Origin: Thermoplasmatota archaeon
GTDB taxonomy: Archaea > Thermoplasmatota > E2 > JACPAO01 > JAHFTW01
NCBI GenBank assembly: GCA_041624075.1
Contig: JBFJVP010000001.1
Location: forward strand, 1 to 33,247
Reading direction: 5' to 3'
DNA length: 33,247 bases
The first letter of the stretch is position 1. Every line of letters begins with the position of its first letter. Positions 2,439 through 19,676 of the stretch are shown in pieces. The translations under genes were made by a program, and so were the position numbers. Under the pieces are notes generated by a model. That model was not told where the DNA came from. It searched no databases and saw nothing but the letters and a program-made list of their open reading frames with translations.

Positions 2439-5400
2439 TCAGCTTGCTGCTGCCGTGGGCACGGATGTCGAGGCGGCCGGGGCGCCGGGCGTCGGTGCAG
2501 CCGGCTCGTTGGGGTCCGTGCCGAGGCGCAGTTCGGCGCCGTCGTCAATGCCGTCGCCGTCGCTGTCGGTCGCACAGGGGTTGGTTCCATAGTGGGCCAC
2601 CTCATTGGTGCTGGACAGGCCGTCGCCGTCGGGGTCTTCATGGGTGTCGTCGGCGTCGGGGTCCATGCACTCGTGGCGCGCCTCATCCTCGTTCAGGATG
2701 CCATCGCCGTCCCGGTCATCGTCGCACGCATCACCCAGTCCGTCACCATCCAGGTCGCCCTGGCCCGGATTGGCCACGAGGCGGCAATTGTCGCTGCCAT
2801 CCACGTATCCATCGCCATCGGTGTCATCCACCAGCGGGTCGGTTCCCAGTTCCAGCTCTTCGCCGTCAAGCAAGCCGTCGCCATCCGTGTCGTCGCGGCG
2901 GGGGTTGGTGCCATGTACGTTCACTTCGTCGCCGTCCGGGATCCCATCGCCGTCGGTGTCGGCCAGGGCGGGGTCCGTGCGGTGGTGGAACACTTCTTGT
3001 CGGTCGCCCAGGCCGTCGCCGTCCGAGTCGGTGGAATGGGGGTTGGTTCCCAAGGACTGCACCTCGAACGAATCGGTGAAGCCGTCCCCGTCGGCGTCGG
3101 CGTTGCGACACGCATCGGTGGCGTGCACCAGGATCTCGTCGCCGTCGCTCAAACCGTCGCCGTCGGAGTCGTGGTTGGCCGGGTCGGGGCAGCCGGTGCC
3201 GCCGGCGCGATCCACCTCGTCACCATCGGTGAGGCCATCGCGGTCGGAGTCGGCGTCGGTGGGGCTAGTGCCCCATGCCGCTTCCTCGCCGTCCGGCAAG
3301 CCATCCTCATCGGTGTCGGCGGAGGTGGGATCGGTGCCCATGAGCGCCTCGCGCTCGTCGGTCAACCCATCATGGTCACTGTCCACGTCCTCGGGGTCGC
3401 AGGCATCGGTGCCGTCGGCGAGTTCCGTGCCGTCCAGCACGCCGTCACCATCCGAATCTGCGATCAGGGGGTCGGGGCACGCGCCGTCGCCTGCCATGAC
3501 GATCTCCTCGCCATCCAGCAGCCCGTCATCGTCCGTGTCGTTGACCAACGGGTCGGTGCCCAGGCTACGTTCGCGGCCGTCATCCAGCCCGTCGTCGTCG
3601 GAGTCGGCCAGTCGCGGGTCGGTGCCGTCGAGCCATTCCTCGCCGTCATCAAGGCCATCGCCATCGGTGTCGGGGAGCGTGGGGTCGGTGCCGTCGTCGA
3701 TCTCCTGGCCGTCGGTAATGCCATCGCCGTCTGTGTCGGCCATCTGCGGGTCAGTGGATGCAGCCACCTCTTGGCCGTCGAGCAAGCCATCGTCGTCGGT
3801 GTCGGCGTCGCACGGATCGCCGCCCACGGGAGATTCGTCGCCGTCCATGAGGCCGTCGTCGTCGGTGTCCGCCACCCAAGGGTCGGTGCAGCCGGTGTCG
3901 ATCTCTTCGGGATCCGTCAAGCCGTCGGCATCGGGATCGGGCGACAGGGGGTCGGTGCCGTGGATGGACTCGGTGCCATCGTCGAGGCCGTCCGAATCGG
4001 TGTCAGGGTTGGTGGGATCGGTGCCTTGGTCGTCCTCTGTGCCGTCCGTCAATCCATCGGCATCGGTGTCCGCTTCGAAGGGATTGCTGCCCAGTTCAGC
4101 CTCGCGGCCGTCGGTGAGGCCGTCGCCGTCCGTGTCGGGGTTGAGCGGGTCGGTGCCACGGGCATGCTCGTCGCCGTCGTTGGCGCCGTCGGCGTCCGTG
4201 TCGACCAAGTCCGGGTCGGTGCCCAGCGCCTCCTCGTCGTTGTTGTCCAGTCCGTCGCCGTCGCGGTCCACGTCACACGTGTCGCCCAGGCCGTCCGCAT
4301 CGCTGTCTGCCTGAGACGGGTTGGCGAGGTCGCAGTTGTCCGCGTTGTCTCCAACGCCGTCCCCGTCAGCATCCTCCCACTCAGCGGGGTCGTCGGGGAA
4401 CGGGTCGCTGGCGTTGGCCACGCCGTCGCCGTCCCGGTCATCGTCGCAGGCGTCCCCGATACCGTCCGCATCCAAATCGGATTGGTCGTTTGCGGCCAGG
4501 ATGCAATTGTCCACGTCGTCGCGGCTCCCGTCGTCGTCGGTGTCCGCCAGATCGGGGTTGCTGCCCAGGGTTTGCTCGTCCGCGTTGGACAGGGTGTCTC
4601 CGTCGCGGTCGTCGTCGCAGGCATCGCCCATGCCATCGCCATCCAAGTCATCCTGGCTCGGGTTTGCCGTTTCAAGACAGTTGTCGCCGTTGTCCCCCAC
4701 GCCGTCGCCGTCTGCGTCCGCCCATTCCGCCGGGTCGGTTGCAAAGGCGTCCGAGGCATCCAAAACGCCATCGCCGTCCGTGTCCGCGAGGTTGGGGTCG
4801 GTGCCGCCATGCGTTTCGTCATCGTCGGTCAAGCCGTCGCCGTCAGTGTCAGTATCGCACGCGTCGCCGATGCCGTCACTGTCCAAGTCTGCCTGAGCAG
4901 GGTTGGCCGCGTCGGGGCAGTTGTCGCCGTTGTCGCCCACGCCATCGCCATCCGCGTCGTCCCACTCACTGCCATCCAGGGGGAACGCGTCGTCGCCGTC
5001 GTTGATGCCGTCACCGTCGGTGTCAGGCGAATCCGGGTCGGTTCCAGCGGCGGCCTCTTGGGAGTTGCTGCTCCCGTCACCGTCACGATCCGGATCGCAG
5101 GCGTCGCCTGCGCCATCCCCGTCAAGATCTGTTTGGTCGTTGTCCACCAAGGGGCAATTGTCCGCGCCGTCGGCCACGCCGTCCCCGTCGGTGTCAAACT
5201 GGTCTGGATCGGTGCCAAGGGCAAACTCGTCGCGATTGGGAAGTCCGTCCCCGTCGCGATCCAGGTCACAGATGTCGCCGACGCCGTCGCCATCCAAGTC
5301 GTCTTGGCCAGCGTTGGGGACATCGATGCAGTTGTCCACGTTGTTGCCAACACCATCGCGGTCCGAGTCTTGGGATTCGGCTGCATTGTCGGGGAAGGCA

Positions 5401-7136
5401 TCCTCGATGTTGTCGACGCCGTCGCCGTCCCGGTCGTCGTCACAGTCGTCGCCCAGCCCATCGGCGTCGAGATCATGCTGGTCCGGGTTGCGTTGATCCG
5501 GACAGTTATCCGCGTCGTTTTCCACGTCGTCACCGTCTCGGTCGTCGTCGCACGCGTCGCCCAAACCGTCGCGGTCGCGGTCTTCCTGGCGCCCGTTGGC
5601 GACGGTTGCACAGTTGTCGTCGCTGTCGAACCAGCCATCGCCGTCTGTGTCCCGATCGCCGGGGTCGGTGCCGGCAGCCAGTTCCTCCTCGTTGGTCAGT
5701 CCATCCCCGTCCCGGTCGTCGTCGCACGCATCGCCCGTGCCATCAAAGTCGATGTCTGCCTGGTCGGCGTTGGCGGCCAGGGGGCAGTTGTCTGCGGGGT
5801 CTCGGTTGCCGTCGCCGTCGGTGTCAACCAGATCGGGGTCAGTGCCCAGTTCAAGCTCGCGGTCGTTGGACCAGCCGTCGCCATCGCGGTCCACATCGCA
5901 CGGGTCGCCGGTTCCGTCCCCGTCCAGGTCTTCTTGGCCAGGGTTGGCAAGGCTGCAGTTGTCTGCGTTGTCGCCCACGCCGTCGGCGTCCCGATCTGCC
6001 CACTCGGAGGCGTCGTCGGGGAACAGGTCGGATTGGTTGGAAACATCGTCGCCGTCCCGATCATCATCGCACGCATCCCCGATTCCGTCTTCGTCCAAGT
6101 CCTGTTGACCGGGGTTGGCCAGGCCGAGGCAGTTGTCCACTTCGTCGTTGACTCCGTCACTGTCGGAGTCCTCGTCGCAGGCATCGCCGCTTCCGTCGCC
6201 GTCGCTGTCGCTTTGGCCCGCATTGGCCGCCGTCGGGCAGTTGTCGGCGGCGTCGCCAACCCCATCTGAATCGGAGTCAGGGTCATCGGGATCCGTTCCC
6301 AGGGCGTCCTCCTCCACGTTGGTCAGGCCGTCGCCGTCCCGGTCGTCGTCGCAAGCGTCACCGACGCCATCCCCATCGCCGTCCTCCTGGGTGTTGCCCG
6401 TGAGGGGGCAGTTGTCGTCGGCGTCGCCGTGACCATCGCCATCGGTGTCAAACAGCCCGGGGTCCGTGCCTAGGGCGACTTCCTCGTCGTCGCCCAGGCC
6501 GTCGCCGTCGCGGTCCGCGTCGCAGGCGTCGCCCCAGCCGTCCTCGTCCGTGTCCACTTGGTCAGCATTGGCTGTGAGACGGCAATTGTCAGCACCATCC
6601 AGGGCGCCGTCGGAGTCAGAGTCCGCGTTGTCAGGATCCGTGCCCAGTGGGCCCTCCTCGACGTTCAGCAGCCCGTCGCCGTCGCGATCGTCGTCGCATG
6701 CGTCGCCCAGTCCGTCCCCGTCCAGGTCCGCTTGGTCGCTGTTGGCTGCCTGGGGACAGTTGTCGTTGCGGTTGCGAACGCCGTCGGCATCCAGGTCCCG
6801 GGGCGTGGAGGCTCCGTCCAGGGGATCCGATCCGGCGTCGATCTCGGCCCCGTCACCGAACCGGTCACCGTCACTATCGGCAGCGCAGGCGTCCGTCAGG
6901 TACACGTTCACTTCGTCGCCGTCAGACAGGCCATCGCCGTCGGTGTCGGGGTTGTTCAGGTCTGTACAGCCCCAATACTCCTCCCGGTCGCGCAAGCCAT
7001 CGCCGTCGGCATCGTTGGCGGCTTGCACGCCAGGAACGGTGGCAAGCGCGGCAAGCGTCAATGCCAGCACCATGGCTGTGGTTAGGCTCGTCCGGAAAGG
7101 CAGGAGCCGCTTCGGGTTGGAGGGTTGGATTTGCAT
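2439..7136 (-). CDS. giant secreted thrombospondin type-3 (TSP3) repeat Ca-binding protein
   Basis: 1565 aa from ATG 7136, with signal peptide MQIQPSNPKRLLPFRTSLTTAMVLALTLAALATVPGVQA and a GGTGA Shine-Dalgarno-like element upstream. The rest is wall-to-wall DxDxDGxxDxxD repeats. About 16 (hand count) are Cys-containing units of the form DNCPxxxNxxQxDxDxDGxGDACDxDRDGDG. A Cys-poor block of GTDPxxxDTDGDGLxDGxE units is also present. There is no C-terminal TM segment. Confidence 0.9.
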   Translation of the reverse strand: MQIQPSNPKRLLPFRTSLTTAMVLALTLAALATVPGVQAANDADGDGLRDREEYWGCTDLNNPDTDGDGLSDGDEVNVYLTDACAADSDGDRFGDGAEIDAGSDPLDGASTPRDLDADGVRNRNDNCPQAANSDQADLDGDGLGDACDDDRDGDGLLNVEEGPLGTDPDNADSDSDGALDGADNCRLTANADQVDTDEDGWGDACDADRDGDGLGDDEEVALGTDPGLFDTDGDGHGDADDNCPLTGNTQEDGDGDGVGDACDDDRDGDGLTNVEEDALGTDPDDPDSDSDGVGDAADNCPTAANAGQSDSDGDGSGDACDEDSDSDGVNDEVDNCLGLANPGQQDLDEDGIGDACDDDRDGDDVSNQSDLFPDDASEWADRDADGVGDNADNCSLANPGQEDLDGDGTGDPCDVDRDGDGWSNDRELELGTDPDLVDTDGDGNRDPADNCPLAANADQADIDFDGTGDACDDDRDGDGLTNEEELAAGTDPGDRDTDGDGWFDSDDNCATVANGRQEDRDRDGLGDACDDDRDGDDVENDADNCPDQRNPDQHDLDADGLGDDCDDDRDGDGVDNIEDAFPDNAAESQDSDRDGVGNNVDNCIDVPNAGQDDLDGDGVGDICDLDRDGDGLPNRDEFALGTDPDQFDTDGDGVADGADNCPLVDNDQTDLDGDGAGDACDPDRDGDGSSNSQEAAAGTDPDSPDTDGDGINDGDDAFPLDGSEWDDADGDGVGDNGDNCPDAANPAQADLDSDGIGDACDTDTDGDGLTDDDETHGGTDPNLADTDGDGVLDASDAFATDPAEWADADGDGVGDNGDNCLETANPSQDDLDGDGMGDACDDDRDGDTLSNADEQTLGSNPDLADTDDDGSRDDVDNCILAANDQSDLDADGIGDACDDDRDGDGVANASDPFPDDPAEWEDADGDGVGDNADNCDLANPSQADSDADGLGDTCDVDRDGDGLDNNDEEALGTDPDLVDTDADGANDGDEHARGTDPLNPDTDGDGLTDGREAELGSNPFEADTDADGLTDGTEDDQGTDPTNPDTDSDGLDDGTESIHGTDPLSPDPDADGLTDPEEIDTGCTDPWVADTDDDGLMDGDESPVGGDPCDADTDDDGLLDGQEVAASTDPQMADTDGDGITDGQEIDDGTDPTLPDTDGDGLDDGEEWLDGTDPRLADSDDDGLDDGRERSLGTDPLVNDTDDDGLLDGEEIVMAGDGACPDPLIADSDGDGVLDGTELADGTDACDPEDVDSDHDGLTDEREALMGTDPTSADTDEDGLPDGEEAAWGTSPTDADSDRDGLTDGDEVDRAGGTGCPDPANHDSDGDGLSDGDEILVHATDACRNADADGDGFTDSFEVQSLGTNPHSTDSDGDGLGDRQEVFHHRTDPALADTDGDGIPDGDEVNVHGTNPRRDDTDGDGLLDGEELELGTDPLVDDTDGDGYVDGSDNCRLVANPGQGDLDGDGLGDACDDDRDGDGILNEDEARHECMDPDADDTHEDPDGDGLSSTNEVAHYGTNPCATDSDGDGIDDGAELRLGTDPNEPAAPTPGAPAASTSVPTAAAS
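2620..6768 (-). repeat. coding tandem-repeat array (TSP type-3 repeats) inside the giant protein
   Basis: The peptide periodicity is visible throughout. The COMP-like Cys-containing units lie at about 4167-6768 and 2620-2793, and the Cys-poor units at about 2794-4166. Boundaries were placed by hand. Confidence 0.8.
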
Positions 7137-7200
7137 GGGTTCACCGCACTTCCGATCCAACCAAGGCCAGACCGAAAACGATCGATCCACGCCGGGCGCG

Positions 7201-7207
7201 TATTTAA
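7201..7207 (-). promoter_or_regulatory. TATA-like box (TTAAATA on the minus strand) upstream of the TSP3 giant gene
   Basis: This is the only strongly AT-rich element in the 380-nt intergenic region. It lies about 65 nt upstream of ATG 7136, which carries a GGTGA SD-like element, implying a leadered transcript. Confidence 0.3.
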
Positions 7208-7516
7208 CACGAGGGCTTGGCAGGAGGGCTTTGGAAACCGAACCGGACCAGATGCAGCCAAACGGTTGTACCACGGCGGAATGTCACCGTTGAAACCACA
7301 GCTACGGCGCTGGACGATCGCGCCGGCACTCGTAATGCGGGAGGCGCTAGACGAGCCACAAGTGTCCAGCCAGGCCCAACAAGAAGCCAGCCAACGCGCC
7401 CAGGGTGGGAACCATGTGGCCGCGCCGCCAGTCAGCTGCTGCGATCCAACCGCCCGCCCGAAAGGCGCGGGACGCCGCTCACCGTCTGTTCTCTACCCAG
7501 CCGCGTGCCCGCCCAA

Positions 7517-8665
7517 CTAATGGGTCGGCAAGCCAATCTGCCGAGCGATGACCATGCGCTGCACCTCACTGGAGCCTTCGCCGATCTCGCACAGCTTGTT
7601 GTCGCGCAGGTACCGCTCCACTTGGTAGTCCTGGATGTACCCGTTGCCGCCGTGGATCTGGATCGCGTCCAGGCAGACGCGTGTGGCCATTTCGCTGGCG
7701 TACAGCTTGGCCATCGAAGCCTCCGTCTTGAACGGCTGACCTGCATCCTTCAAAGTGGCGGCGCGGGCGAGCAACAGGCGGGCGGCGTCGATCTCGGTGG
7801 CCATGTCGGCCAGTTTCCATTGGATGGCCTGGAAGCTGCCGATGGTCTTGCCAAACTGCTCCCGTTCCTTCGCGTACGCCACGGCACGGTCATAGCCGCC
7901 CTGGGCCAAGCCCAGACTTAGGCTGCCAATGGCAATGCGACCGGCATCGAGCGTGTGCAGGGCGCCGGTGAAGCCCTTGCCCTCTTCGCCCACCATGCGG
8001 TCGTCGGGGAGCCACATGTCCTCAAAGTAGAGCTGGCTCGTGATGGAGCCCCGCATGCCCAGCTTGTCCTCCTTGTTGCCCAGTTGCAAGCCCTTCTCGC
8101 CCTTCTCGGCCACGAAGGCACTGATGCCCTTGGCGCCCGCCGATGGGTCGGTCTTGGCCATGATCGTGATGACATCCGCGATGTGGCCGTTGGTGATGAA
8201 CTGCTTCTGGCCATTGAGTACCCAGCCATCGCCGTCGCGCACCGCCTTGGTCTCCAGGGCGGCTGCGTCACTGCCACTGGTGGGCTCGGTCAGCGCCCAG
8301 GCACCGATCTTCTTGCCCTGCGCCAGATCCGGAATCCAGCGCTGGATCTGCTCTGGGCTGCCCTGGGAGTAGATCTGGCTGATGCCCAGTCCGTTGTGGG
8401 CCGCCAGGCTCAACGACAGGCTGCCCGAAACGCGGGCGATCTCCTCGATCGCGATGTTGTAACTGACTGTGTCGAGGCCTGTTCCGCCGTCCTCGGCGCG
8501 CACCGTCATGCCCATGAGGCCCATCTCGGCGAGCCGGGGCACCAACTCTTCCGGCCACCAGTCCTCAACATCCATCTTGTCGGCGATCGCGGCAACCTCG
8601 GTCTCGGCGAATTCGCGCATGGTCTTGCGCACGAGTTGCTGCTCCTCGGTGAACTGGAAATCCAT
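7517..8665 (-). CDS. acyl-CoA dehydrogenase (short/medium-chain type)
   Basis: 382 aa from ATG 8665 ([21 protein letters not shown]). Readable motifs are [23 protein letters not shown] and the C-terminal [17 protein letters not shown] (catalytic Glu context). An alternative upstream ATG at 8719 would add 18 Pro-rich residues. The track ORF start at 8968 is rejected. Confidence 0.92.
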
Positions 8666-8756
8666 GGTGAACGGGCCGGCCAAGCGGGGCCCCGGCTTAA
8701 GGGGCGCGCTGGGACCCATGCCGGGCAAGAACAGGCCCGCCACGAAAATCTTTGAC

Positions 8757-8763
8757 AAAAAAA
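8757..8763 (-). terminator. T7 tract downstream of peptide gene P1 (archaeal oligo-T terminator candidate)
   Basis: The minus strand reads CCTTTTTTTG 27-33 nt after the P1 stop (8790-8792). Oligo-T tracts are the known archaeal termination signal. Confidence 0.4.
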
Positions 8764-8789
8764 GGATAGAGGAGGGAGTCAGAATGGAC

Positions 8790-8993
8790 CTAGATGCAGA
8801 TGCCGTACCAACCGTAGTTGAGGTATTTGCCGTCGCAGGATCCGCCGTGCCAGCCTTCGCAGACGTACACGATGGTGCCAAGGATCTCGTCACCGGGATC
8901 GCCACAGGTGTGGGCTGCCGTGGCAGTGGGGGCAACGGCGACCGCGCCGATGGCGAGGCTAAGTGCAACGAGCAAGACGAGTTTGGTGCTCAT
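8790..8993 (-). CDS. small secreted four-Cys peptide, paralog P1 (67-aa precursor, about 41-aa mature)
   Basis: ATG 8993 gives MSTKLVLLVALSLAIGAVAVAPTATA|AHTCGDPGDEILGTIVYVCEGWHGGSCDGKYLNYGWYGICI. It has a Sec-type signal with an AxA site. It is one of four tandem paralogs. Against P2, the last 26 codons show 12 synonymous versus 3 nonsynonymous differences. Confidence 0.8.
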   Translation of the reverse strand: MSTKLVLLVALSLAIGAVAVAPTATAAHTCGDPGDEILGTIVYVCEGWHGGSCDGKYLNYGWYGICI

Positions 8994-9033
8994 GGAATGC
9001 CCCACACACGGCGCCCGATTGACCCATTCGGAT

Positions 9034-9048
9034 ATGCAACCGTTGCAT
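9034..9048. promoter_or_regulatory. 15-nt palindrome ATGCAAC-C-GTTGCAT upstream of P1 (candidate regulator binding site)
   Basis: Seven-bp perfect inverted arms surround a single central base, located 41-55 nt upstream of the P1 ATG. A one-nt loop excludes an RNA hairpin, so this is more likely a DNA site. Confidence 0.3.
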
Positions 9049-9141
9049 TGCAGATTTCAATGGGATAGCGAAGCATGTCAGGGATGAGGGCGCAGCCGCA
9101 CCCCCCATTGCCGGCCGGAAGCTCCAACTTGCCTGCATCCG

Positions 9142-9345
9142 TCAAATGCAGCGGCCATACCAGCCATAGTTCAGGTACTTGCCTTCGCAGTACCCGCCGT
9201 GCCACCCTTCACACACATAGACAACGGTCCGCGTCAATTCATCGTCGCCCCCACCACACGTGTGGTCTGCGGCGGCCTCCGGCGTCAGCGCAACGGCAAC
9301 GGCAACCAGCGTCAAGGCAACGAGCAGGGCCCTCTTCCTAGCCAT
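9142..9345 (-). CDS. small secreted four-Cys peptide, paralog P2 (67-aa precursor)
   Basis: ATG 9345 gives MARKRALLVALTLVAVAVALTPEAAA|DHTCGGGDDELTRTVVYVCEGWHGGYCEGKYLNYGWYGRCI. A GGGTG SD-like element lies 5 nt upstream. The track ORF start at 9483 would overlap P3 and is rejected. Confidence 0.8.
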   Translation of the reverse strand: MARKRALLVALTLVAVAVALTPEAAADHTCGGGDDELTRTVVYVCEGWHGGYCEGKYLNYGWYGRCI

Positions 9346-9410
9346 AGGGCACCCACGCATGTGCGACTCATGACCACTACCCTCGCGCACCCGCCGCGTT
9401 GCACGCGACA

Positions 9411-9650
9411 TCAAAGGCACCACCCATACCAGCCGTAATGGAGCCGTTCGCCATGGCACGGATGGCCGTGGTATCCATCGCACACCCGGTCAGCCAGGCC
9501 GATGGCCGGGTTGATTACGCCTTGGCCCGGGCCCTGCCAATTGGTGTCTTCCAGGTAGCAGTTGTGACGCGCGGCGGCATCCGGCAAGAGGGCGACCGTG
9601 GCGCTCAGCAAGGCAATCGCTGCGAGGACTTGCAACAGGGCTCGGACCAT
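9411..9650 (-). CDS. small secreted four-Cys peptide, paralog P3 (79-aa precursor, long subtype)
   Basis: ATG 9650 gives MVRALLQVLAAIALLSATVALLPDAAA|RHNCYLEDTNWQGPGQGVINPAIGLADRVCDGYHGHPCHGERLHYGWYGWCL. It has the same Cys/His/aromatic-Gly framework as P1, P2 and P4. Confidence 0.78.
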   Translation of the reverse strand: MVRALLQVLAAIALLSATVALLPDAAARHNCYLEDTNWQGPGQGVINPAIGLADRVCDGYHGHPCHGERLHYGWYGWCL

Positions 9651-9670
9651 GCCGCCGACATGGCGGGCAA

Positions 9671-9678
9671 CTATTAGG
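9671..9678 (-). promoter_or_regulatory. TATA-like box (CCTAATAG) for P3, leaderless spacing
   Basis: The box ends 20 nt upstream of ATG 9650. The same spacing is seen at P4, rimK and surface protein A. Confidence 0.4.
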
Positions 9679-9680
9679 GG

Positions 9681-9721
9681 TCAATCGGGGCGCACTTAGC
9701 TAACCCCGATTGAACGAAAAA
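9681..9721 (-). terminator. T5 tract plus 10-bp hairpin downstream of P4
   Basis: After the P4 stop (9727-9729) the minus strand reads AGTTGTTTTTCG. A perfect 10-bp inverted repeat follows (TCAATCGGGG at 9681-9690 and CCCCGATTGA at 9704-9713) with a 13-nt loop. Confidence 0.4.
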
Positions 9722-9726
9722 CAACT

Positions 9727-9969
9727 CTAGATGCAGATCAGGCCGTACCAGCCGTAGTCCAGGTACTTGCCATCGCAGTAGCCGCCGTGGTAGCCGTCGC
9801 ACACCGCGTCGGCCGTCCGAAGGGCGTGGTTCATGGGCCGCTCGCCCACGCCCGTCCAGGAGAGATCCTCGATGGGACAGTTGTGGGCTGCCGATGCCGT
9901 GGGCACCAAGGAGAATGCAAGTGCAACAAGGGCAAGCGTAGTGACGGCGGCAACGAGTTTCCGAGTCAT
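9727..9969 (-). CDS. small secreted four-Cys peptide, paralog P4 (80-aa precursor, long subtype)
   Basis: ATG 9969 gives MTRKLVAAVTTLALVALAFSLVPTASA|AHNCPIEDLSWTGVGERPMNHALRTADAVCDGYHGGYCDGKYLDYGWYGLICI. Confidence 0.8.
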   Translation of the reverse strand: MTRKLVAAVTTLALVALAFSLVPTASAAHNCPIEDLSWTGVGERPMNHALRTADAVCDGYHGGYCDGKYLDYGWYGLICI

Positions 9970-9990
9970 CTAATTGGCGACTGGTACCCC

Positions 9991-9998
9991 AAGTATAG
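9991..9998 (-). promoter_or_regulatory. TATA-like box (CTATACTT) for P4, leaderless spacing
   Basis: The box ends 21 nt upstream of ATG 9969, inside the 65-nt gap after the permease stop. Confidence 0.4.
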
Positions 9999-10034
9999 CT
10001 GTGACGAAGACGTAACGGATTGGTTGCACACCCA

Positions 10035-11396
10035 CTACGACGCCCTCAACATGGTGGCCAGGTTCATCTTGGCGTGGCTGCGCAGCACGACGCCCAAGGC
10101 GAGGCTGCTGGACACGATCAGGACGGCTGCCGCAAGGCCGGCGGCTTGGCTGCTGGCGGTGAAGCCGAGGGGCACGGGCGCATCACTGGCTCGCAACGCG
10201 GCATCCAGCACCGGCCCGAGCACCAGTGCGAGGAGGGCCGTGACGGCTGCGGCGACCAGTGTGATCTGGAACACCAGCCAACTCAGGGCACGCCGCACCA
10301 CGGTATGGCCGACGCCGATGGCATAGCAGACGGCGATGGCGCCCTTCTGGTTTTCCAGTTGGCGCGCCAGGCCGTGGATGATCAGGAATGTGGGGATGAG
10401 AAAGAGCACGATGCTGGTAGCCGTGGCAAGCACCTGGACCGCGTCGAGCATTTGGCCCAGGTAGCGGTGGGTGAACTCGGCGGGCCCTTCAGCTGCCCAG
10501 CCGTGGCGTTGGGCGGTGCTTCGGGTGCTGTCCAGGTTGCCGCCTTCCACGAGCAACACGTTGGCCACGGGCGCATCGGGCTCGTAGCCGAGCAGCGTTC
10601 GGACATCCTCGATGGGCGCCAGGAGCGTCACGGAATCGAGGGCATCAATGCCGGTTTGCCACGTCCCCACGACGTGCGCGGGGCGACGGATGACGTCCAC
10701 GATGGCTGCCCCTTCGCGCACCCGACCAGCGGTGATCTCGAAGCGAATGGGGTTCAGGTCCTGGGGGCTGGGGGGCCAACTGGTCATGGAGGAGCGCTCG
10801 GCGGGCGACAGGAACCGTTCCAGCCGGTCGGCGGGCATGAGCAGGGGCATGGAGCTGCGCGCCGCACCCCGGTTGAACCCGCCGCTCAGGATGTACTGCT
10901 CCAGGGGCCCCGTGTCCCGGGGATCGTCGAAGTCGATTCCGACGATGGCACCGATGCCGAACACCTCGTCGCCCTCGCCGCTGAAGTTGAACTGGTCGTC
11001 CTCTCCCAGGGCAGCCTCAAGGAAACTGCGCCGGCTGATGACGTACTGGCTTTCCATGTGAACGCGCACGTTGCCACCGTCGGCCTCCAGTAGGCTGACC
11101 GCCTGATCGAGGGTGGTAGAGGAGTTGGGCCCAAAGATGCCGGGCGGAATGGCGGCGGCGCTTCCCTTGGCCACGCGCAGGTCGCCCGTGAAGACATCGC
11201 CCACTCGCTCCTGGGTCGCCTGTTGGAGTCCGGCGAAGATTCCGGCAGAGACCAGCATCAACAGAAGCGCTGTCGCCAAGGCACCGGATGTGCCCAAGAA
11301 CCAGCCGCGCGCGTCGCGCCGCCAGCCACGGGCCAACAGCCGCGTGGCAGCCAAACCACTGCGACCCCGGCGATTGTCTGCTCCACCCCCAGCCAC
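10035..11396 (-). CDS. FtsX/MacB-type ABC transporter permease (no cognate ATPase in the window)
   Basis: About 453 aa. It has an N-terminal TM (GALATALLLMLVSAGIFAGL), an extracytoplasmic domain of about 230 aa, then three C-terminal TMs (IVLFLIPTFLIIHGL..., LVFQITLVAAAVTALLALVLGPV, AAGLAAAVLIVSSSLALGVVL). The start is set at GTG 11396 because a CTTTTCAA box ends 21 nt upstream. The longer track ORF (to 12266) would overlap the well-supported plus-strand hydrolase. TTG 11336 is an alternative start. Confidence 0.78.
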   Translation of the reverse strand: MAGGGADNRRGRSGLAATRLLARGWRRDARGWFLGTSGALATALLLMLVSAGIFAGLQQATQERVGDVFTGDLRVAKGSAAAIPPGIFGPNSSTTLDQAVSLLEADGGNVRVHMESQYVISRRSFLEAALGEDDQFNFSGEGDEVFGIGAIVGIDFDDPRDTGPLEQYILSGGFNRGAARSSMPLLMPADRLERFLSPAERSSMTSWPPSPQDLNPIRFEITAGRVREGAAIVDVIRRPAHVVGTWQTGIDALDSVTLLAPIEDVRTLLGYEPDAPVANVLLVEGGNLDSTRSTAQRHGWAAEGPAEFTHRYLGQMLDAVQVLATATSIVLFLIPTFLIIHGLARQLENQKGAIAVCYAIGVGHTVVRRALSWLVFQITLVAAAVTALLALVLGPVLDAALRASDAPVPLGFTASSQAAGLAAAVLIVSSSLALGVVLRSHAKMNLATMLRAS

Positions 11397-11418
11397 GGCC
11401 CCGCAGACCCGGGGTCGG

Positions 11419-11426
11419 TTGAAAAG
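11419..11426. promoter_or_regulatory. AT-rich TATA-like element (TTGAAAAG / CTTTTCAA) in the divergent permease-hydrolase intergenic region
   Basis: This is the only AT-rich octamer between GTG 11396 (minus) and ATG 11478 (plus). It shows leaderless spacing toward the permease and lies about 51 nt from the hydrolase ATG. Confidence 0.3.
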
Positions 11427-11477
11427 GCCCCGAGTCGTTGCGGTGCCGTGAAGGTCCCCCGCATCGTCGAGCAAGAG

Positions 11478-12329
11478 ATGGCGTATCCGCGTCGCGACGT
11501 CAACGTGGGCGTACGCATGAGCGTCGTGGATGTACCAGGCACCAGCGGCCAGACAGTCCTGCTGCTGCACGGAAACCCCACCTGGAGTTTCCTGTACCGC
11601 CACCTGATCGGGCCGCTGGCCGCCGACGGCCACCGCGTGGTGGTACCGGATCTGGCGGGCCATGGCCTGAGCGAGAAGCCCACGGACCCGGATTACTACT
11701 CGCTTCAGAGGCACATCGACAATCTGGTGCGCATGGTCGAAGAGATGGACTTGCACAACGTGAGCCTGGTCTTGCACGACTGGGGCGGCCCCATTGGAAT
11801 GGGTATGGCGGTCCGCCTGCCGGAGCGTATCCGGCAAATCATCGTTGCCAACAGCATCGCCTTTGCACCCCACAAGCAGCGGCCACTGAGCACGTTCCAC
11901 CGCGTCATGGGCTCGCCAGCGATTGTCAACCTGGGTAGCCGCGTGAACCTGGTCGGACGAGTGGCAATGAACTTCGGAGTCCGAAAGCGCCTGGCAGCCG
12001 ACGTGCGCCAGGCCTACGCGTGGCCCCTGCAAGAACGGGGCGGCAGGGTCGCGGTTGCCCAGATGGTGGAACGCGTGCCCAACGGACCCGACCACCCCAC
12101 CGCCCAGGCGCTCCGGGAAATCGAGGCAGCCTTTGGGCGCCTCGCAGACAAGCCCATGCACATCCTCTGGGCCGACGGCGACCCCGTTTTCCCTCCAAAG
12201 CTGGCCGAGCGGTGGCAAAAGCCGTTTCCCCACGCCACCGTCGAACACATCTCGAAGGCGGGGCACTTCTGGCAGGAGGACGACCCGGAGCCGTTTCTCA
12301 ACCGGGTGCGGGACCGCCTGGCGCCTTGA
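11478..12329 (+). CDS. haloalkane dehalogenase-like alpha/beta hydrolase (DhlA-like)
   Basis: 283 aa from ATG 11478. Readable motifs are LLLHGNPTWSFLYRHLI, the nucleophile elbow LVLHDWGGPIG (Asp) and the C-terminal KAGHFWQEDDP (His). The pattern closely recalls Xanthobacter DhlA (HGEPTWSYLYR ... QDWGG ... GHFVQE). Confidence 0.85.
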   Translation: MAYPRRDVNVGVRMSVVDVPGTSGQTVLLLHGNPTWSFLYRHLIGPLAADGHRVVVPDLAGHGLSEKPTDPDYYSLQRHIDNLVRMVEEMDLHNVSLVLHDWGGPIGMGMAVRLPERIRQIIVANSIAFAPHKQRPLSTFHRVMGSPAIVNLGSRVNLVGRVAMNFGVRKRLAADVRQAYAWPLQERGGRVAVAQMVERVPNGPDHPTAQALREIEAAFGRLADKPMHILWADGDPVFPPKLAERWQKPFPHATVEHISKAGHFWQEDDPEPFLNRVRDRLAP

Positions 12330-13752
12330 CCGGACCCCGTTTGCGCGTCGTGCCCGGAGCAGCGGCGCGGCGGCCCGTTTTCCAGTTCACATGGCCCAAA
12401 TCGCCACCCTCCTTGACGTAGGCGCGTGCCTTCTTCAAGCTCTTGTGCAGGTGGCCAATGTGGACGACGGCGTTGCCGGGATTGGTCAGGGGCACCGTCG
12501 TCGTTGACAGGATGACACCGGATTTGGTTGCCTTCAATTCGTCCACGTGGCGACCAAACGGGTCATGGATGATGCCGATGCGTTGTTTCGCCCGAACCAA
12601 ATCGCCGGGCTCAACTTCGAGGTACAACAGTCCGCCATGGTCAGCGCGCACCCATTCGCTCTTGCGCACCAACACCTGGAAACCGGGTCGGACGGCCTTG
12701 GCCTTCACCATACCAAACGACCGCATGACGCCCATCACGCCGTTGAATCCAATCTGGACCACATGCTGCTGGAACCGACTGGGCTCTCCCGCTTCAAAGA
12801 TGATAGTGGGAATGCCGGCATTGGTGGCCGCCCGGCGCAGACTCCCGTCGGGCCCGGCCCCATGCATCATCACCGGCGTCCCAAACGCCCGCATCATGTC
12901 CCGCAGCGCCGGATCGTCGGCATCTCCCCGCACATGGCAGAGGTTTGCGCGGCCCGTGGCGGCGGTGTGGAGGTCGATGCCCGCGTCCGCGTGGCGCAGC
13001 ACCTTGGTGAACAACTGATGCGCGATGCGGCTCGCCATCGAACCAGTGGCGTCGCCCGGGAAGAACCGGTTCAGGTCCCGCCGGTCCGGCAGGTACCGAT
13101 CACCCGTCGGGAAGCCAAAACGGTTGACCACAGGCACTCCAATGAACGTGCCTGCCAGTTGGTCTGGCTCCAATCGATCAAGCACTGCCCTGACGACGGC
13201 CGTGCCGTTGATCTCGTCACCGTGGACGGCAGCCGTGGCAAACAGCGTCGGCCCCGGCTTGGTGCCCCGCACGACCGTGACGGGGATTCGTGCCGGCACA
13301 TGGGTCACTGCTTCGCTCACCTTGAGGTTGATTTCGGCAACATCGCCGGCCTTGACGGACCGGCCCGCGATGCGATGCACCTCCGACCAGTCGCGCGGCT
13401 TGGCCCACGCAGGCGGGCCGGCCCGGCTCTTGCCAGGCACCTCCTCGCCATTGGTGCGAACATCGGAAGGGCCATTGGATGCCGTTGCAGCCTGATCCTC
13501 CTCGGAGGCTTCGGTCGGCTGACGGGACAATTCTTCCGACAGGTCCGGGGTGCCAGATTCGACGGAGGCCTTGCGCGGCTTGCGAGCGGATGCTTTGGCC
13601 TTTGCAGCCGCACGACGCTTGGGCTTCGCCTTGGCCGCAACCGGGGCAACGGCCTCGGCATCATCAGGATCGGGAGAATCTGGCGCGTCGGCTGGCCGAC
13701 CAGGCGGATCGGACGAGCTGGCCCCACCCACCGAATCACCAGGAGGCGACAT
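12298..13752 (-). CDS. succinylglutamate desuccinylase/aspartoacylase-family (AstE/AspA, M14-like) zinc deacylase with a long disordered N-terminal extension
   Basis: 484 aa. The core motifs are AAVHGDEINGT (Zn ligands H..E), DLNRFFPG and GIDLHTA. The first 125 aa or so are low complexity, with an acidic/Pro stretch followed by the basic AKAKPKRRAAAKAKASARKPRKA. Its ATG overlaps the rimK stop (TGATG at 13750-13754). Confidence 0.85.
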   Translation of the reverse strand: MSPPGDSVGGASSSDPPGRPADAPDSPDPDDAEAVAPVAAKAKPKRRAAAKAKASARKPRKASVESGTPDLSEELSRQPTEASEEDQAATASNGPSDVRTNGEEVPGKSRAGPPAWAKPRDWSEVHRIAGRSVKAGDVAEINLKVSEAVTHVPARIPVTVVRGTKPGPTLFATAAVHGDEINGTAVVRAVLDRLEPDQLAGTFIGVPVVNRFGFPTGDRYLPDRRDLNRFFPGDATGSMASRIAHQLFTKVLRHADAGIDLHTAATGRANLCHVRGDADDPALRDMMRAFGTPVMMHGAGPDGSLRRAATNAGIPTIIFEAGEPSRFQQHVVQIGFNGVMGVMRSFGMVKAKAVRPGFQVLVRKSEWVRADHGGLLYLEVEPGDLVRAKQRIGIIHDPFGRHVDELKATKSGVILSTTTVPLTNPGNAVVHIGHLHKSLKKARAYVKEGGDLGHVNWKTGRRAAAPGTTRKRGPVKAPGGPAPG

Positions 13753-14645
13753 CAGCGAGCCACCCTCCGATGGTACTCCGCACAGAACCGAATCACTTCT
13801 CGCGCCACGTTCACGCCCGTGGCACGCTCCAGGCCTTGAAAGCCTGGACTCGCATTAACCTCGAGAATCTTCGGCCCATCACGGCTCTCCAAGAAGTCCA
13901 CGCCGGCCACCTGCAAACCCATCGCGTGGGCCGCCTCGATCACAACCAAGCGATCCGACGCCGACAATTCCAAGGGACGCCCTTGTCCGCCGCGGTGAAT
14001 GTTGCTGCGAAACTCCCCCAACTTGGCCTCGCGCCGCATCGCACCAACGACGTGGTCACCCACGACGAAAGCCCGAACGTCGCGGCCCTTGGCTTCCTTG
14101 ATAAACTCCTGCAGCAAGATCACGTGGCCCAAGCTCCAAAGCGTTTGCAGAATCGACTCGATGGCATCCCGGCTTTCCGCCAGCATCACTCCCACGCCAT
14201 GGGTGCCCTTGATAAGCTTCAAGATGCACGGCATCCCACCAACCAGCTCGATCGCCTGATCAATGTCCTCGGCGCTTCGAATCACCACCGTACGCGGAAT
14301 GTCAACATTGCACCGAGACAACACCTGAAACGACCTCAGCTTGTCCCGTGCCCGGAGAATCGACTGGCTTCCGTTGACCACGGTCACCCCCATCATCTCC
14401 ATTTGGTTGACGACCGCGCAACCAGCCTCCGTCACGCTGGCACCAATGCGAGGCACCACCACGTCCACATCGCGGCGCCGCAACGGCTCGCCCCTGACAT
14501 ACAGCTTCGGCGCACGCGCATGCAGCACCAGTTGCGTCTTGAGCACATCAAGCGTCCGCGCCGAGTGCCCCTGCCTCCGGCACTCCTCCATAAAACGGCG
14601 AATCGAGTGAAGCCGGGGTTCCCGCGTCAGGAACAGGAAGCGCAC
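13752..14645 (-). CDS. rimK: RimK-family ATP-grasp alpha-L-glutamate ligase
   Basis: 297 aa from GTG 14645 (VRFLFLTREP...). ATP-grasp motifs are GMPCILKLIKGTHGVGV, ILLQEFIKEAKGRDVRAFVVG, EFRSNIHRGG and GVDFLESRDGPKILEVNASPG. Archaeal relatives include the MptN, CofF and LysX types, so the substrate is unknown. Confidence 0.88.
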   Translation of the reverse strand: MRFLFLTREPRLHSIRRFMEECRRQGHSARTLDVLKTQLVLHARAPKLYVRGEPLRRRDVDVVVPRIGASVTEAGCAVVNQMEMMGVTVVNGSQSILRARDKLRSFQVLSRCNVDIPRTVVIRSAEDIDQAIELVGGMPCILKLIKGTHGVGVMLAESRDAIESILQTLWSLGHVILLQEFIKEAKGRDVRAFVVGDHVVGAMRREAKLGEFRSNIHRGGQGRPLELSASDRLVVIEAAHAMGLQVAGVDFLESRDGPKILEVNASPGFQGLERATGVNVAREVIRFCAEYHRRVAR

Positions 14646-14788: not shown

Positions 14789-15658
14789 TCAGGTGACGCC
14801 GATGCGCAGCAGGATGCGACCGTCACGGAAGATCCGCACCACGCCACTCTCGGACACCGTAATGGCGATCGCCTTGGTTTCCGTAGTAACGGCAGCCGCC
14901 GCCAAGTGCCTGCCTCCAAGCCCCGAAGGCAGGTCCGTAGGATCACGCACCTCAATGTAGCGGCCCGCCGCCTCGACGATGCCATCCTCACGAACCACGA
15001 TAGCGCCGTCAATCTGCGCGAACTCCTTGATCGTCTCCCAGGAACGCGCATCGAGCACGCTGCGCTCCTGGGGCGGGTGCCCAGCAAACGGATTGAGAAC
15101 GACCTGGCGGCTGTGGCGCAGTACCCGATCCGTGTCGCCAACAACAAACAGGGTCCCAACCGGGTTCTTCTCGCGGCCTTCACGGGCCAAGTCACGGGCC
15201 AGTTGCAGCACAGCCTCAACCACCCGGACGTCGGCGCGGTACTCCAAGTCCTTCTTCAGCTTCGCCACAGACTCGTCGTGGGCCATGTCGAAAGCCAGCA
15301 ATCCGAAGCCAGCCTCATCGCCCAACTCCACGACGACCAACCGCTCATCGGGCTCCAGTCGGCCCTCGACGTACGCCGTCAGCAGGATCTCACGTAACGC
15401 CTTGAGCGCGTTGATGCCACCACCCACGCGGTAGCCCAACTCCATCACGTCAACGTCCTCCCGGCCGGCAAAGCGGTCACCCGCACCCGGATGTGAACTA
15501 GCAATCAGCAGCGGAGGCCCCAAAGCCTCAATCCAGGTCTCCAATTGATCCAGATCCGTTCCAGTCAGAAGAACCCGTGAAGCCTGAAACCCATCCCGTA
15601 GGGTTCGCGCCTGCCCCAGAAGGTCCTCCATTGGCTCGGTGATTGCCTCCGCGCTCAT
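14789..15658 (-). CDS. dacZ: diadenylate cyclase, archaeal DacZ-type (N-terminal regulatory domain plus C-terminal DAC domain)
   Basis: 289 aa from ATG 15658 (MSAEAITEPMEDLL); the track start at 15733 would overlap the upstream gene. DAC motifs are GTLFVVGD, IDGAIVVREDG, GGRHLAAAAVT and AIAITVSESGVVRIFRDG. It has no TM segments, and an N-terminal soluble domain of about 150 aa as described for DacZ. Confidence 0.82.
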   Translation of the reverse strand: MSAEAITEPMEDLLGQARTLRDGFQASRVLLTGTDLDQLETWIEALGPPLLIASSHPGAGDRFAGREDVDVMELGYRVGGGINALKALREILLTAYVEGRLEPDERLVVVELGDEAGFGLLAFDMAHDESVAKLKKDLEYRADVRVVEAVLQLARDLAREGREKNPVGTLFVVGDTDRVLRHSRQVVLNPFAGHPPQERSVLDARSWETIKEFAQIDGAIVVREDGIVEAAGRYIEVRDPTDLPSGLGGRHLAAAAVTTETKAIAITVSESGVVRIFRDGRILLRIGVT

Positions 15659-15689
15659 GAAGGATTCGAGTGCTCCGGGCAATTCACGC

Positions 15690-18600: not shown

Positions 18601-19646
18601 CTGACGTGGGCTGCCGATGCGTCGACCAGTTCGCTCAAAACTAGATCGAGGCCGGAAATCTTGCCGGCGCCGTCGCCACGGGTAGCTGCCGAGACCACGA
18701 AAGGAGCCACATCGTCCCGCTCGGTAACGTCGTTGGTGGCAACAACCAAGGCGCCACCACGAGCCGATCGCGCTGCGCCGCCAGCAGGGTAGGTGAGATC
18801 CGGCTTCAGGCCAGTGTTGACGGCGCTGCCCTCGGCGAATCGGATCGTAGCCGTGCGGGCCGTGCCATTGGCATTGGCGGTCGCATCCAAGCCGGTGGCA
18901 GGAACACCACCCACCAGGAATTCTGCGGCATTGAGCGTGTTGACCACCATGTCGGTGTCAAATGTCACGGCCAACGCATCGATCTTGCCGTTGCCATTGG
19001 CATCACGGGTCAAGGCCGATGTGATCTTGGGCGGAGGGGGCGCCTGCACAGTGATCGCAAACGTTGACGTCTGCGTGGGCTCATTCTGAACAGGCGGAAC
19101 CACGCCATGGGTGCCCTTCACATCGATGCTGAATGTGCCCGTCGAAGCGCTCGGTCGCACGTTGACATCAAGAGTGAACTCATGGGTCTGCCCGCCTTGG
19201 AAGGGACCGCCAGCGCCCCCTGCGGATGGTCCGCCAGCGCTGAAGGTGACCGTCAGGTTGTCGGCGCCGACGGCTGCCGATGAACCTTGCCACGTGGACG
19301 TGGCCTCGCCGGTCCGGAACCGCAACGGGCTGGTTGCGCCCTCCTTGAGCGTAAAGGTCAGCGACGCCAACGACGCCTCCGGACCTCCCGGATTCGTCAC
19401 GGAGACCTTGATCGAGTGGTCAACGGCCCCCAACTGCACTGTCGTGGTCGCTGCATTGGGCGCAAGCTGAAGCGCGTGGCCAGCCTGCACACTCGGAACC
19501 AGTACGAACAGGAGGAGCAGCGCCACCGCCACGGCACGCAGGTCACCGACCTTTCCTCGTGAAATAGACGCGATGCGGAATGTCAATCGAGCACCTTCTC
19601 GGATTGCCGTGGCCCGCTGCGAGGCAGAATGGCCAAAGCTATGCAT
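15690..19646 (-). CDS. giant surface protein A (1318 aa): signal peptide, Ig-like/DxDxDG modules, FN3-like module, TM anchor, acidic tail, C-terminal zinc ribbon
   Basis: The ATG at 19646 is preferred over GTG 19679 because TTTTTATTTT ends 18 nt upstream. The hydrophobic signal is RAVAVALLLLFVLVPSVQA. Four ...T.D.D.DG.ID...V.F(S/D)E.. modules are present. The TM is WVWVALVLILLVVVALIAWLIIRL (16029-16100). A 112-aa acidic tail ends in CPNCQQHFQVTGQRPLIVTCPSCG. Confidence 0.85.
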   Translation of the reverse strand: MHSFGHSASQRATAIREGARLTFRIASISRGKVGDLRAVAVALLLLFVLVPSVQAGHALQLAPNAATTTVQLGAVDHSIKVSVTNPGGPEASLASLTFTLKEGATSPLRFRTGEATSTWQGSSAAVGADNLTVTFSAGGPSAGGAGGPFQGGQTHEFTLDVNVRPSASTGTFSIDVKGTHGVVPPVQNEPTQTSTFAITVQAPPPPKITSALTRDANGNGKIDALAVTFDTDMVVNTLNAAEFLVGGVPATGLDATANANGTARTATIRFAEGSAVNTGLKPDLTYPAGGAARSARGGALVVATNDVTERDDVAPFVVSAATRGDGAGKISGLDLVLSELVDASAAHVSDFTVTECTCGNKALEGVGASVSTLRITFTAEGTSGSTPSYRYAVDQGTRIVDPAGKVLADRADLRVALDRAPPIALSAVTQDADSDGKIDGYLVTMSEPVNDNTLHASEWAVAGRAVSGMSTGTASDPIFTVLFSEGSSGDSGDKPELTYTPGTGLRDLADNVLAAIGAGGLIETDGAKPVLGLSTVAAGDTTVSGAFSEPVRDETGAALVKEDFTYDNAATGGASAIGSVTHTAGQAGIVFTLNAALAESDFNADSIAATPAKVKDAAGNSALGSPVLLLPDKPFLKSAHGNIGNKTVVLTFSEEVDDGAGGALAVSDFAITAASGSAVASIAAVKHSLTSEPEKVELTLNQPLAATDVDGTPTSIGAAANSIFRKGSDVAASTQKKGVVDVTPPTIKFVETVDSNTDGRLDALKVTFSEPVADSTGTTSDLNKDHWVIDSTIGKPKSVVTGSTALTPNVANDNIIFLVFDEILDGSRTPKVSYVPGTLKDLATPPNSLAAASQIAAQDKVAPVTTLTLSPATPQGLDGWYTSAPTVTLARNEAGTTTYKLDSGSDKAYGAPFVLPANDDELKITYSSTDLAGNKEPDRVSPTLKIDSVKPPTPSQPNATLQSGRVLLAWSQVEDATSGVKEYLIKRNNQLLPNRVAAGTTTLLDTPPEFGTYDYQVAAIDHAGNIGLFSVRSPGIEFDPGKVVDDPTPSFTEQDIKDTNRKLRDSIVVKREGLSNVITWDLPSDLPADVLGLQLWRSTSPFERVRNIVAGSAAFVAEKYTDSGAAENATYLLTAYFSTQAAGGYSSTDAPGDIPGFDLLGDGVAVTPDQQQDDPVDGGVASWVWVALVLILLVVVALIAWLIIRLSKRPEDEFGVDDDQFAEEWADQPEETTWLEDEPPAWPGAEEDLTTAEVDEGSWEPGSDAGRTEPSAASGTSTGPPAGPHPAQCPNCQQHFQVTGQRPLIVTCPSCGTEGRLP

Positions 19647-19664
19647 CGTTCCAGGGGCCTTGGC

Positions 19665-19674
19665 AAAATAAAAA
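19665..19674 (-). promoter_or_regulatory. TATA box (TTTTTATTTT) for surface protein A, leaderless spacing
   Basis: This is the strongest AT-rich element in the window and ends 18 nt upstream of ATG 19646. Confidence 0.5.
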
Positions 19675-19676
19675 CG

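Follow-up and report, generated by a model that had tools for sequence, protein, structure and literature searches.

The halocins are the only archaeal antimicrobial peptide families for which a detailed molecular description exists; just three such families are known at this level, nearly all of them haloarchaeal (bioRxiv 10.64898/2026.07.27.741052). Since these three families alone have been described in such detail, further archaeal antagonistic peptides are to be expected. More generally, secreted peptides that have a known role outside the cell are very scarce in archaea. Here we analyze four small genes, named P1 to P4, that are located on the minus strand at positions 8790-9969 of a stretch of 33,247 nucleotides of a Thermoplasmatota archaeon (contig JBFJVP010000001.1 of assembly GCA_041624075.1, from its first position), to which we refer as the window. 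With high confidence, we consider P1 to P4 to be real genes for exported peptides of a new family; an antagonistic role of these peptides is the reading that we favor, tentatively, for their function.

In halocin C8, an N-terminal immunity domain is joined to a C-terminal peptide of 76 amino acids (aa), HalC8, which is derived from a 283-aa precursor that also holds the immunity protein and is exported by the twin-arginine translocation pathway, and genes for a regulator and an ATP-binding cassette (ABC) transporter flank the gene (bioRxiv 10.64898/2026.07.27.741052). The present family resembles halocins C8/S8 and H4 in consisting of gene-encoded archaeal peptides with predicted export, C8 and S8 being in addition small, cysteine-rich, heat-stable and antagonistic. 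It differs from HalC8 in that the precursors are 67-80 aa long and carry Sec-type signals, with no twin-arginine motif and no accessory genes, and none of the four peptides matched the halocin C8 model TIGR04449 (halocin_C8_dom) of NCBIfam at E <= 10.

Another related type of molecule is found among the Sec-dependent class II bacteriocins, such as enterocin P and the pediocin-like peptides with their YGNGV-x-C box, which are made as short Sec precursors that yield a disulfide-containing mature peptide of ~40-50 aa, often from several paralogs. The short Sec precursor and the mature size are shared with the family described here, as is, superficially, a Y-G-x-x-G/V-x-C motif. However, this motif is C-terminal here and N-terminal in the class IIa pediocin-like peptides (YGNGV-x-C-x4-C), the sequences differ, and the present peptides are acidic (isoelectric point, pI, 4.4-6.2) instead of cationic. 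The peptides had no match among the Pfam bacteriocin families, and the adjacent immunity gene or dedicated exporter that characterizes class II bacteriocin loci is missing at the array; a small open reading frame (ORF) with three transmembrane (TM) segments is present only at one related locus (L014, see below). Sec-exported small cysteine-rich peptides encoded in a tandem array are a familiar kind of system, and there is no evidence here of a new mechanism.

The four genes and their predicted peptides

The four paralogous genes are co-directional and encode, from P4 to P1, precursors of 80, 79, 67 and 67 aa. P4 (9727-9969) encodes a signal peptide of 27 aa (9889-9969, ...PTASA) followed by a predicted mature peptide of 53 aa (9730-9888, AHNC...YGWYGLICI); it matches the family profile with an E value of 1.5e-30, and its nearest relative is the family member L006a, with 77% identity. 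P3 (9411-9650; signal peptide 9570-9650; predicted mature peptide 9414-9569, 52 aa, RHNC...YGWYGWCL) is the most divergent copy of the window, yet it keeps all 12 residues that are invariant in the family (E 3e-28). The short subtype is represented by P2 (9142-9345; signal peptide 9268-9345; predicted mature peptide 9145-9267, 41 aa, DHTC...YGWYGRCI; E 3e-17), for which an alternative public call of 72 aa starts at 9360, and by P1 (8790-8993; signal peptide 8916-8993; predicted mature peptide 8793-8915, 41 aa, AHTC...YGWYGICI; E 1e-18). A six-frame search with the family profile matched these four copies, with E values from 1e-17 to 1e-30, and found no others in the window. The intergenic gaps of the array are ~65-150 bp long and contain no extra ORF under selection. 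The alignment of P1 to P4 has 21 invariant columns, including a P-x-A-x-A stretch that closes the hydrophobic N-terminus, the H-x-C that follows it, and the C-terminal C-x-G-x-H-G-x-x-C-x-G-...-Y-G-W-Y-G-x-C.

A reading of this stretch that had been made from its letters, without database searches (the sequence-only reading), had described four co-directional paralogous small-peptide genes, and we recovered the same ORFs on the minus strand. Its counts were reproduced as well: the mature P1 and P2 peptides are identical at 30 of 41 positions by hand count (78% in an identity matrix over gap-free columns), and their last 26 codons differ by 12 synonymous and 3 nonsynonymous codon differences. 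The proportions of synonymous (pS) and nonsynonymous (pN) differences between P1 and P2 are 0.77 and 0.21, respectively. The conclusion that purifying selection acts on real peptides extends to the family, since pN is below pS in 44 of 45 family pairs (Nei-Gojobori method), the exception being L001a versus L009 with 0.33 for both. Synonymous sites are near saturation in these pairs, in which omega, the ratio of nonsynonymous to synonymous change, is roughly 0.15-0.7.

The same data bear on whether these ORFs might be by-products of a high G+C content, or whether the ORFs on the opposite strand might be the true genes. Long antisense ORFs overlap all four peptide genes, which is explained by the window G+C content of ~64%, and on two near-identical contigs the gene caller preferred an antisense ORF over P3. 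However, when 10 family members are compared over an ungapped block of the core, purifying selection is seen in the claimed frame alone, with pS 0.56, pN 0.14 and a ratio of 0.25, against pN/pS values of 0.48-1.96 (about 0.5-2.0) in the other five frames, three of which contain stops; read in the antisense frame -1, every one of the 10 sequences contains stops. The G+C content at third codon positions is 0.72-0.97 in the claimed frame. Together with the excess of pS over pN between P1 and P2, and with the invariant Cys, His, Gly and Tyr columns and the intact signal peptides of all 11 members, these results refute the artefact reading as far as sequence comparison can do so, and we consider it to be almost certainly wrong. 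P1 to P4 are real paralogs, each maintained separately, and belong to a very small family of Thermoplasmatota pre-peptides that is restricted to its lineage.

It should be noted that the P3 protein is missing from the protein collection that was searched, and that an antisense call stands in its place in two public gene-call sets. At the position corresponding to window 9411-9650, the public gene calls of the two near-identical contigs give a 74-aa antisense ORF (L004:251-475 and L005:31-255, both on the minus strand). Here a small gene lying in high-GC DNA has been misannotated, which illustrates that automatic gene calling can replace such small genes in public records.

Parsing by hand of all 11 precursors revealed the features of a Sec signal peptide in each of them, in agreement with the Sec-type signal ending in AxA that had been read earlier in the window copies: the n-region has a charge of +1 to +3, the uncharged h-region is 14-19 aa long with a mean Kyte-Doolittle value of 2.2-2.8, and the c-region is P-x-A-x-A, with the small residue Ala at positions -3 and -1. 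No twin-arginine motif and no lipobox Cys was found in the 11 precursors. The predicted mature peptides of all members have 41-53 aa, a mass of 4.4-6.0 kDa and a pI of 4.4-6.2, and contain 6-9 aromatic and 6-11 Gly residues each, with a grand average of hydropathy (GRAVY) of -0.7 to 0.0. They start with X-H-[NT]-C and end with C-x-G-[YW]-H-G-x-x-C...Y-G-[WF]-[YF]-G-x(1,2)-C-x-stop. Twelve residues are invariant in the 11 members, for which five or more sequencing runs or assemblies are the source; in P4 mature numbering these are H2, C4, C30, G32, H34, G35, C38, G40, Y45, G46, G49 and C52. The four Cys and two His residues that were noted as invariant in the window copies are therefore found throughout the family, and the YGWYG tail of the window copies is in the wider family a more relaxed Y-G-[WF]-[YF]-G. 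At the predicted mature position 1, six residues occur (among them A, R, D, M and G), and positions 2 and 4 are always His and Cys, respectively. The second invariant His lies within C-x3-H-x3-C, often with an extra His beside it (HGH, C-H-G). As read from the alignment, the core looks like a pair of units that resemble one another, one being G-[YW]-H-G-x-x-C and the other G-[WF]-[YF]-G-x(1,2)-C.

The peptides do not evolve uniformly along their length, as pN/pS is 0.29-0.35 in the conserved core from the second Cys to the C-terminus and, in the long forms, reaches 0.75-0.84 between Cys1 and Cys2. Indels of 8-12 residues in this Cys1-Cys2 segment separate long, intermediate (L009) and short forms. 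The segment reads T-V-V-Y-V-C in the short forms and A-L-R-T-A-D-A-V-C in the long forms, and the subtypes may hence differ in local secondary structure. Two subtypes had been proposed earlier. The short form of P1 and P2 stands, but there are at least three subtypes, P3 and P4 being loosely grouped at 54% identity. AlphaFold2 models, built with a shallow 9-sequence alignment, had predicted local distance difference test (pLDDT) values of 56.7 for P4 and 47.7 for P1, and both were unusable. Both low-confidence models contained a weak C-terminal beta-hairpin near YGWYG, on which we do not rely, and a Foldseek search of the P4 model against the PDB returned no match; no structural inference is justified from these predictions. 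Between the window and L004, which is 99.56% identical, just two differences fall in peptide genes (window 9826 and 9440). Both are nonsynonymous, P4 H48Q and P3 H71Y, and each replaces a non-invariant His. The acyl-CoA dehydrogenase genes of the two sequences differ by three synonymous changes and one nonsynonymous change; in both cases the numbers are too small to interpret.

Size, distribution and copy number of the family

Despite the large collections searched, the family remains tiny. Six proteins were returned when the four-sequence profile was run by word index against 5.8 billion proteins, an exhaustive HMMER scan of 1.84 billion representatives at 50% identity gave four clusters, and a later search of the 5.8 billion proteins with ten mature peptides gave ten proteins and added one new member. 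Including ORFs read directly from fetched loci, there are 11 distinct members, all from Thermoplasmatota metagenome-assembled genomes (MAGs) or short metagenome contigs. They come from closely related genomes, and the features that they share are not independent observations. The titles of the related loci agree with the archaeal host assumed in the sequence-only reading. The title of two longer related loci, 'MAG: Thermoplasmatota archaeon isolate Mix_sand...', would be compatible with an origin in a metagenome survey of sandy beaches along the Chinese coast (bioRxiv 10.64898/2026.04.10.717577).

Scans of the peptides against Pfam and NCBIfam (both at E <= 10), PADLOC and PHROGs gave nothing beyond noise, and a sequence search of the PDB with the family profile had no match at E <= 10. 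No relatives were found among the JGI metagenome contigs and the IMG/VR viral contigs, the cluster look-up returned no name or accession for any family member, and a literature text search for YGWYG returned a single irrelevant paper. These results agree with the view that the motif belongs to no named family, and, judged by sequence comparison, the family is new and unannotated. A match in a Spirochaetales MAG (L008:9203-9253) was rejected as probably due to chance; a protein of >1000 aa there contains V-C-E-G-Y-H-G-G-I-C-Q-G, which matches the C-x-G-Y-H-G-x-x-C motif of the family over just 17 residues, and it has no YGWYG tail.

The number of copies varies among the loci. The window has four (P1 to P4), with variants of them in L004/L005, three are present in L001 (GCA_041622435.1), two in L006 (JBFIJP010000050), and one each in L009 (ENA ERZ28654005) and L014 (Logan SRR32660073), and the subtypes are mixed in differing orders. 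The copy numbers of 4, 3, 2, 1 and 1 and the mixed subtype orders point to birth-and-death evolution, of which the family appears to provide a clean case for small genes at one chromosomal hotspot. The family is confined to one clade of uncultured Thermoplasmatota, which are probably dwellers of coastal sand, and it has no detectable relatives among ~15 billion predicted proteins.

Possible functions of the peptides

We tentatively propose that the peptides are disulfide-locked secreted effectors that act outside the cell and are possibly antagonistic, that is, archaeocin-like. Each precursor would be exported via the Sec pathway and cut by signal peptidase I after the invariant P-x-A-x-A, releasing an acidic Gly/aromatic-rich peptide of 4.4-6.0 kDa. 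Outside the cell, the four invariant Cys residues would probably pair as two disulfides that lock the C-terminal core C-x-G-[YW]-H-G-x-x-C-x-G-x3-4-Y-G-[WF]-[YF]-G-x(1,2)-C-x-COOH, and the indel-rich, fast-evolving Cys1-Cys2 segment would form a variable loop. The effector may then act by binding a target outside the cell, the most plausible setting being antagonism towards, or competition with, neighboring microbes, and would need no dedicated exporter. We favor this proposal because of the combination of a conserved scaffold with a variable loop, the birth-and-death tandem duplication, the differences in copy number and the very narrow distribution. Gene-encoded antagonistic peptides usually combine a conserved scaffold and a variable loop with birth-and-death in tandem and an ORFan distribution.

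Several observations weigh against an antagonistic effector. The mature peptides have an acidic pI, and cationic peptides make up the majority of the membrane-active antimicrobials. No gene of an immunity-like type, or for processing or export, goes with the array, the genes of which are only ~65-150 bp apart, and the FtsX-like permease next to it is older than the array. The pN/pS ratio of the loop is raised but remains below 1, and it was obtained from saturated sequences whose alignment is uncertain. That the Cys residues form disulfides is an assumption (the AlphaFold2 models have pLDDT values of 57 and 48), and the 11 members, coming from closely related genomes, do not count as independent. 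The effector role is given a probability well below even.

An extracellular metal-binding role is a less likely alternative. A chelate of the Xaa-His type, as in Gly-His-Lys, would be formed by the amine of residue 1 and the backbone amide and imidazole of His2; Cys4, the second invariant His and acidic residues would complete or add Cu(II), Ni(II) or Zn(II) sites, with which metal could be sequestered, delivered or buffered at the cell surface. As in Gly-His-Lys-type Xaa-His peptides and the Xaa-Xaa-His motif (ATCUN), the His near the predicted mature N-terminus, here at position 2, follows a variable residue 1 with an amine that would be free after cleavage. Were the amine all that counts in residue 1, an invariant His2 next to a variable position 1 would be the expected pattern, and this role would also fit the second invariant His inside C-x3-H-x3-C with its frequent flanking His and the acidic character of all members. 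However, Xaa-His and ATCUN are chemical motifs and not protein families, and the cleavage site here is predicted, with a shift by a single residue being sufficient to destroy the motif. The window scans revealed no metal-homeostasis gene nearby, four diverged tandem copies with a fast-evolving loop are atypical of metallochaperones, and a metal-binding role accounts neither for the turnover of the paralogs nor for the invariant Gly and aromatic residues.

A role in surface coating, adhesion or glycan binding is comparably unlikely. Here, the disulfide-linked Gly/aromatic core would bind, self-assemble, coat the envelope, bind polysaccharide or aid attachment to sand grains. The high content of aromatic and Gly residues (6-9 and 6-11 per mature peptide of 41-53 aa), the invariant Y-G-[WF]-[YF]-G beside a Cys and the maintenance of several paralogs speak for such a role, as do the Mix_sand names of related MAGs, which are consistent with sandy-sediment metagenomes, and a neighborhood rich in giant surface proteins with thrombospondin type 3 (TSP3) and fibronectin type III (fn3) repeats. 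The sequence-only reading had seen a resemblance to hevein, and hevein/CBM18 modules are likewise Gly-, aromatic- and Cys-rich, ~40 aa long and contain an aromatic-Gly-aromatic-Cys-Gly-like stretch. This resemblance finds no support, as hevein has eight Cys in a fixed pattern that includes a CC pair, the present family has four, and the chitin-binding type 1 family PF00187 was not matched even at E <= 10. The chaplins are another comparison, being Sec-exported peptides of ~50 aa with conserved Cys that are encoded by several paralogous, in part adjacent, genes; chaplins are hydrophobic and have two Cys, whereas the present peptides are acidic and hydrophilic, have four Cys and had no Pfam match. 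In general, no hevein/CBM18, chaplin or lectin family of Pfam was matched at E <= 10, the peptides (GRAVY -0.7 to 0.0) are not obviously amphipathic, and they have no anchoring motif.

Elements of the antagonistic and metal-binding proposals can be combined. The family could be the first antagonistic or metal-handling gene-encoded peptide family of non-halophilic Thermoplasmatota: a Sec-exported mini-protein of 41-53 aa with an Xaa-His-x-Cys N-terminus binding Cu(II)/Ni(II) and a disulfide-locked Gly/aromatic core, which would use or sequester metal to harm competitors, or scavenge it, in oxic permeable beach sand. We regard this specific combination as rather improbable. If it were true, the peptides would constitute a new archaeocin class or a peptide metallophore that requires no biosynthetic machinery beyond signal peptidase.

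Secreted signalling peptides of the pheromone or quorum type, sensed by a membrane receptor, would also be small, exported and lineage-specific, with a conserved core and a variable region that could set specificity, but this role is very unlikely, as the window contains no adjacent receptor kinase or regulator, the HisKA kinase of L001 lies ~5 kb off on the other strand, and four diverged copies of 41-53-aa disulfide peptides are unusual for prokaryotic signals. The remaining probability lies with roles that we did not consider, and from the available sequences nothing would firmly discriminate between a toxin, a glycan-binder and a metal-binder. The short form, with its 41 aa and four Cys, is accessible to chemical synthesis, which makes antagonism, metal binding and glycan or mineral binding testable without culture of the host.

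Neighboring genes and other features of the window

Two candidate archaeal terminators on the minus strand were read from the sequence. One, between P4 and P3 (9682-9724), consists of a T-rich tract (ttgtttttcgtt, 9713-9724) and a hairpin with a 9-bp stem (caatcgggg...ccccgattg, 9682-9712). The other, an oligo-T run of seven T (8757-8763) that would close the array, lies 27 nt past the stop of P1, ahead of the acyl-CoA dehydrogenase gene, and L006 has a comparable T-run after the final gene of its array. A scan for sigma-70 promoters and bacterial-type intrinsic terminators gave nothing, as expected for an archaeon, and the aligned upstream regions have no conserved promoter element, only scattered A/T-rich hexamers 25-45 nt before some start codons. 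A repeat search found paralogous coding repeats only, and an Rfam scan of 8000-11000 found no element.

Upstream of the array lies a gene for a divergent FtsX-like permease (10035-11474, minus strand; a 479-aa public call whose true start is uncertain), which is not a family member. Its hydrophobic segments (57-84, 342-373, 396-429 and 436-468), with a loop of ~260 aa between the first and the second, have the layout of FtsX/MacB. PF02687 (FtsX) was matched by four of the five members of this permease family, with a best E value of 1.3e-7; the window protein is the exception, with no match in Pfam (E <= 1), NCBIfam or the PDB. No ABC ATPase motifs occur anywhere in the window. The earlier label of an orphan FtsX-type permease is fair with regard to the relatives and the missing ATPase, though the window protein itself does not match FtsX. 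Directly downstream of the array is an acyl-CoA dehydrogenase gene (7517-8668, minus strand; Pfam E values of 1e-27 to 1e-54), likewise outside the family, which is the one neighbor common to every family-bearing locus (synteny in L001, L006, L009, L015 and L014).

Three more distant relatives (L010, L012 and L013), the permeases of which are 38-42% identical, have the permease gene followed within ~55-90 bp by the acyl-CoA dehydrogenase gene, with no peptide genes between them and no family member anywhere in these loci. The array is therefore a lineage-specific insertion into an older synteny: the ancestral order is RimK, AstE-like, FtsX-like, acyl-CoA dehydrogenase and thiolase, and insertion of the peptide array between permease and dehydrogenase took place in one sub-lineage. 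This weakens the link with the permease at which the sequence-only reading had hinted, and we rejected a functional link with the permease on this ground. A functional link with the dehydrogenase was also rejected, since all loci come from related genomes and their synteny is not independent, and since the L014 member lies on the other side. At L014, this single family member follows a small ORF (L014:194-634; 124-146 aa) with three hydrophobic segments that is located 45 bp upstream of it and for which the other loci offer no homolog; this ORF may encode an immunity-like partner or have no relation to the peptide.

Because insertions and gene order vary at this spot, the neighbors of the array are to be read as marking a hotspot and not as functional partners. 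In L006, an insertion of 1.9 kb (L006:7926-9850; compare window 10032-10110) separates the FtsX-like gene from the peptide array; it contains a 444-aa lipobox-like ORF without family match and is flanked by a direct duplication of ~79 bp of the 3' end of the permease gene, which looks like site-specific integration or a recombination scar. In L009, too, the peptide gene is preceded by a homolog of this 444-aa ORF. Between the dehydrogenase and thiolase genes, the window encodes a 1611-aa protein of Asp-rich TSP3-like repeats (2439-7274, minus strand), the repeat type having been assigned by reading the translation. This gene is missing in L006 and L001, where dehydrogenase and thiolase are almost adjacent, and it is hence another insertion at the same hotspot.

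A RimK-type ATP-grasp ligase, an AstE/AspA-like deacylase and the FtsX-like permease form a conserved cluster that is followed by the acyl-CoA dehydrogenase (L010:6083-10523, window 10035-14645). The stop and start codons of the first three genes overlap in L010, and in the window an alpha/beta-hydrolase gene (about 11478-12329, plus strand) is inserted between deacylase and permease. The window is rich in large surface proteins. It encodes a 2901-aa ORF with fn3, PKD-like and purple-acid-phosphatase-N-like domains (19741-28446, minus strand), near which are a second TSP3-repeat protein (28697-30064) and a transglutaminase-like protein (30159-31985). A 1329-aa ORF (15690-19679, minus strand) has weak zinc-ribbon-like matches at its extreme C-terminus only. 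Finally, a 314-aa ORF (14789-15733, minus strand) contains a DisA_N/DAC diadenylate cyclase domain (E 6e-20), which suggests cyclic-di-AMP signalling in this archaeon.

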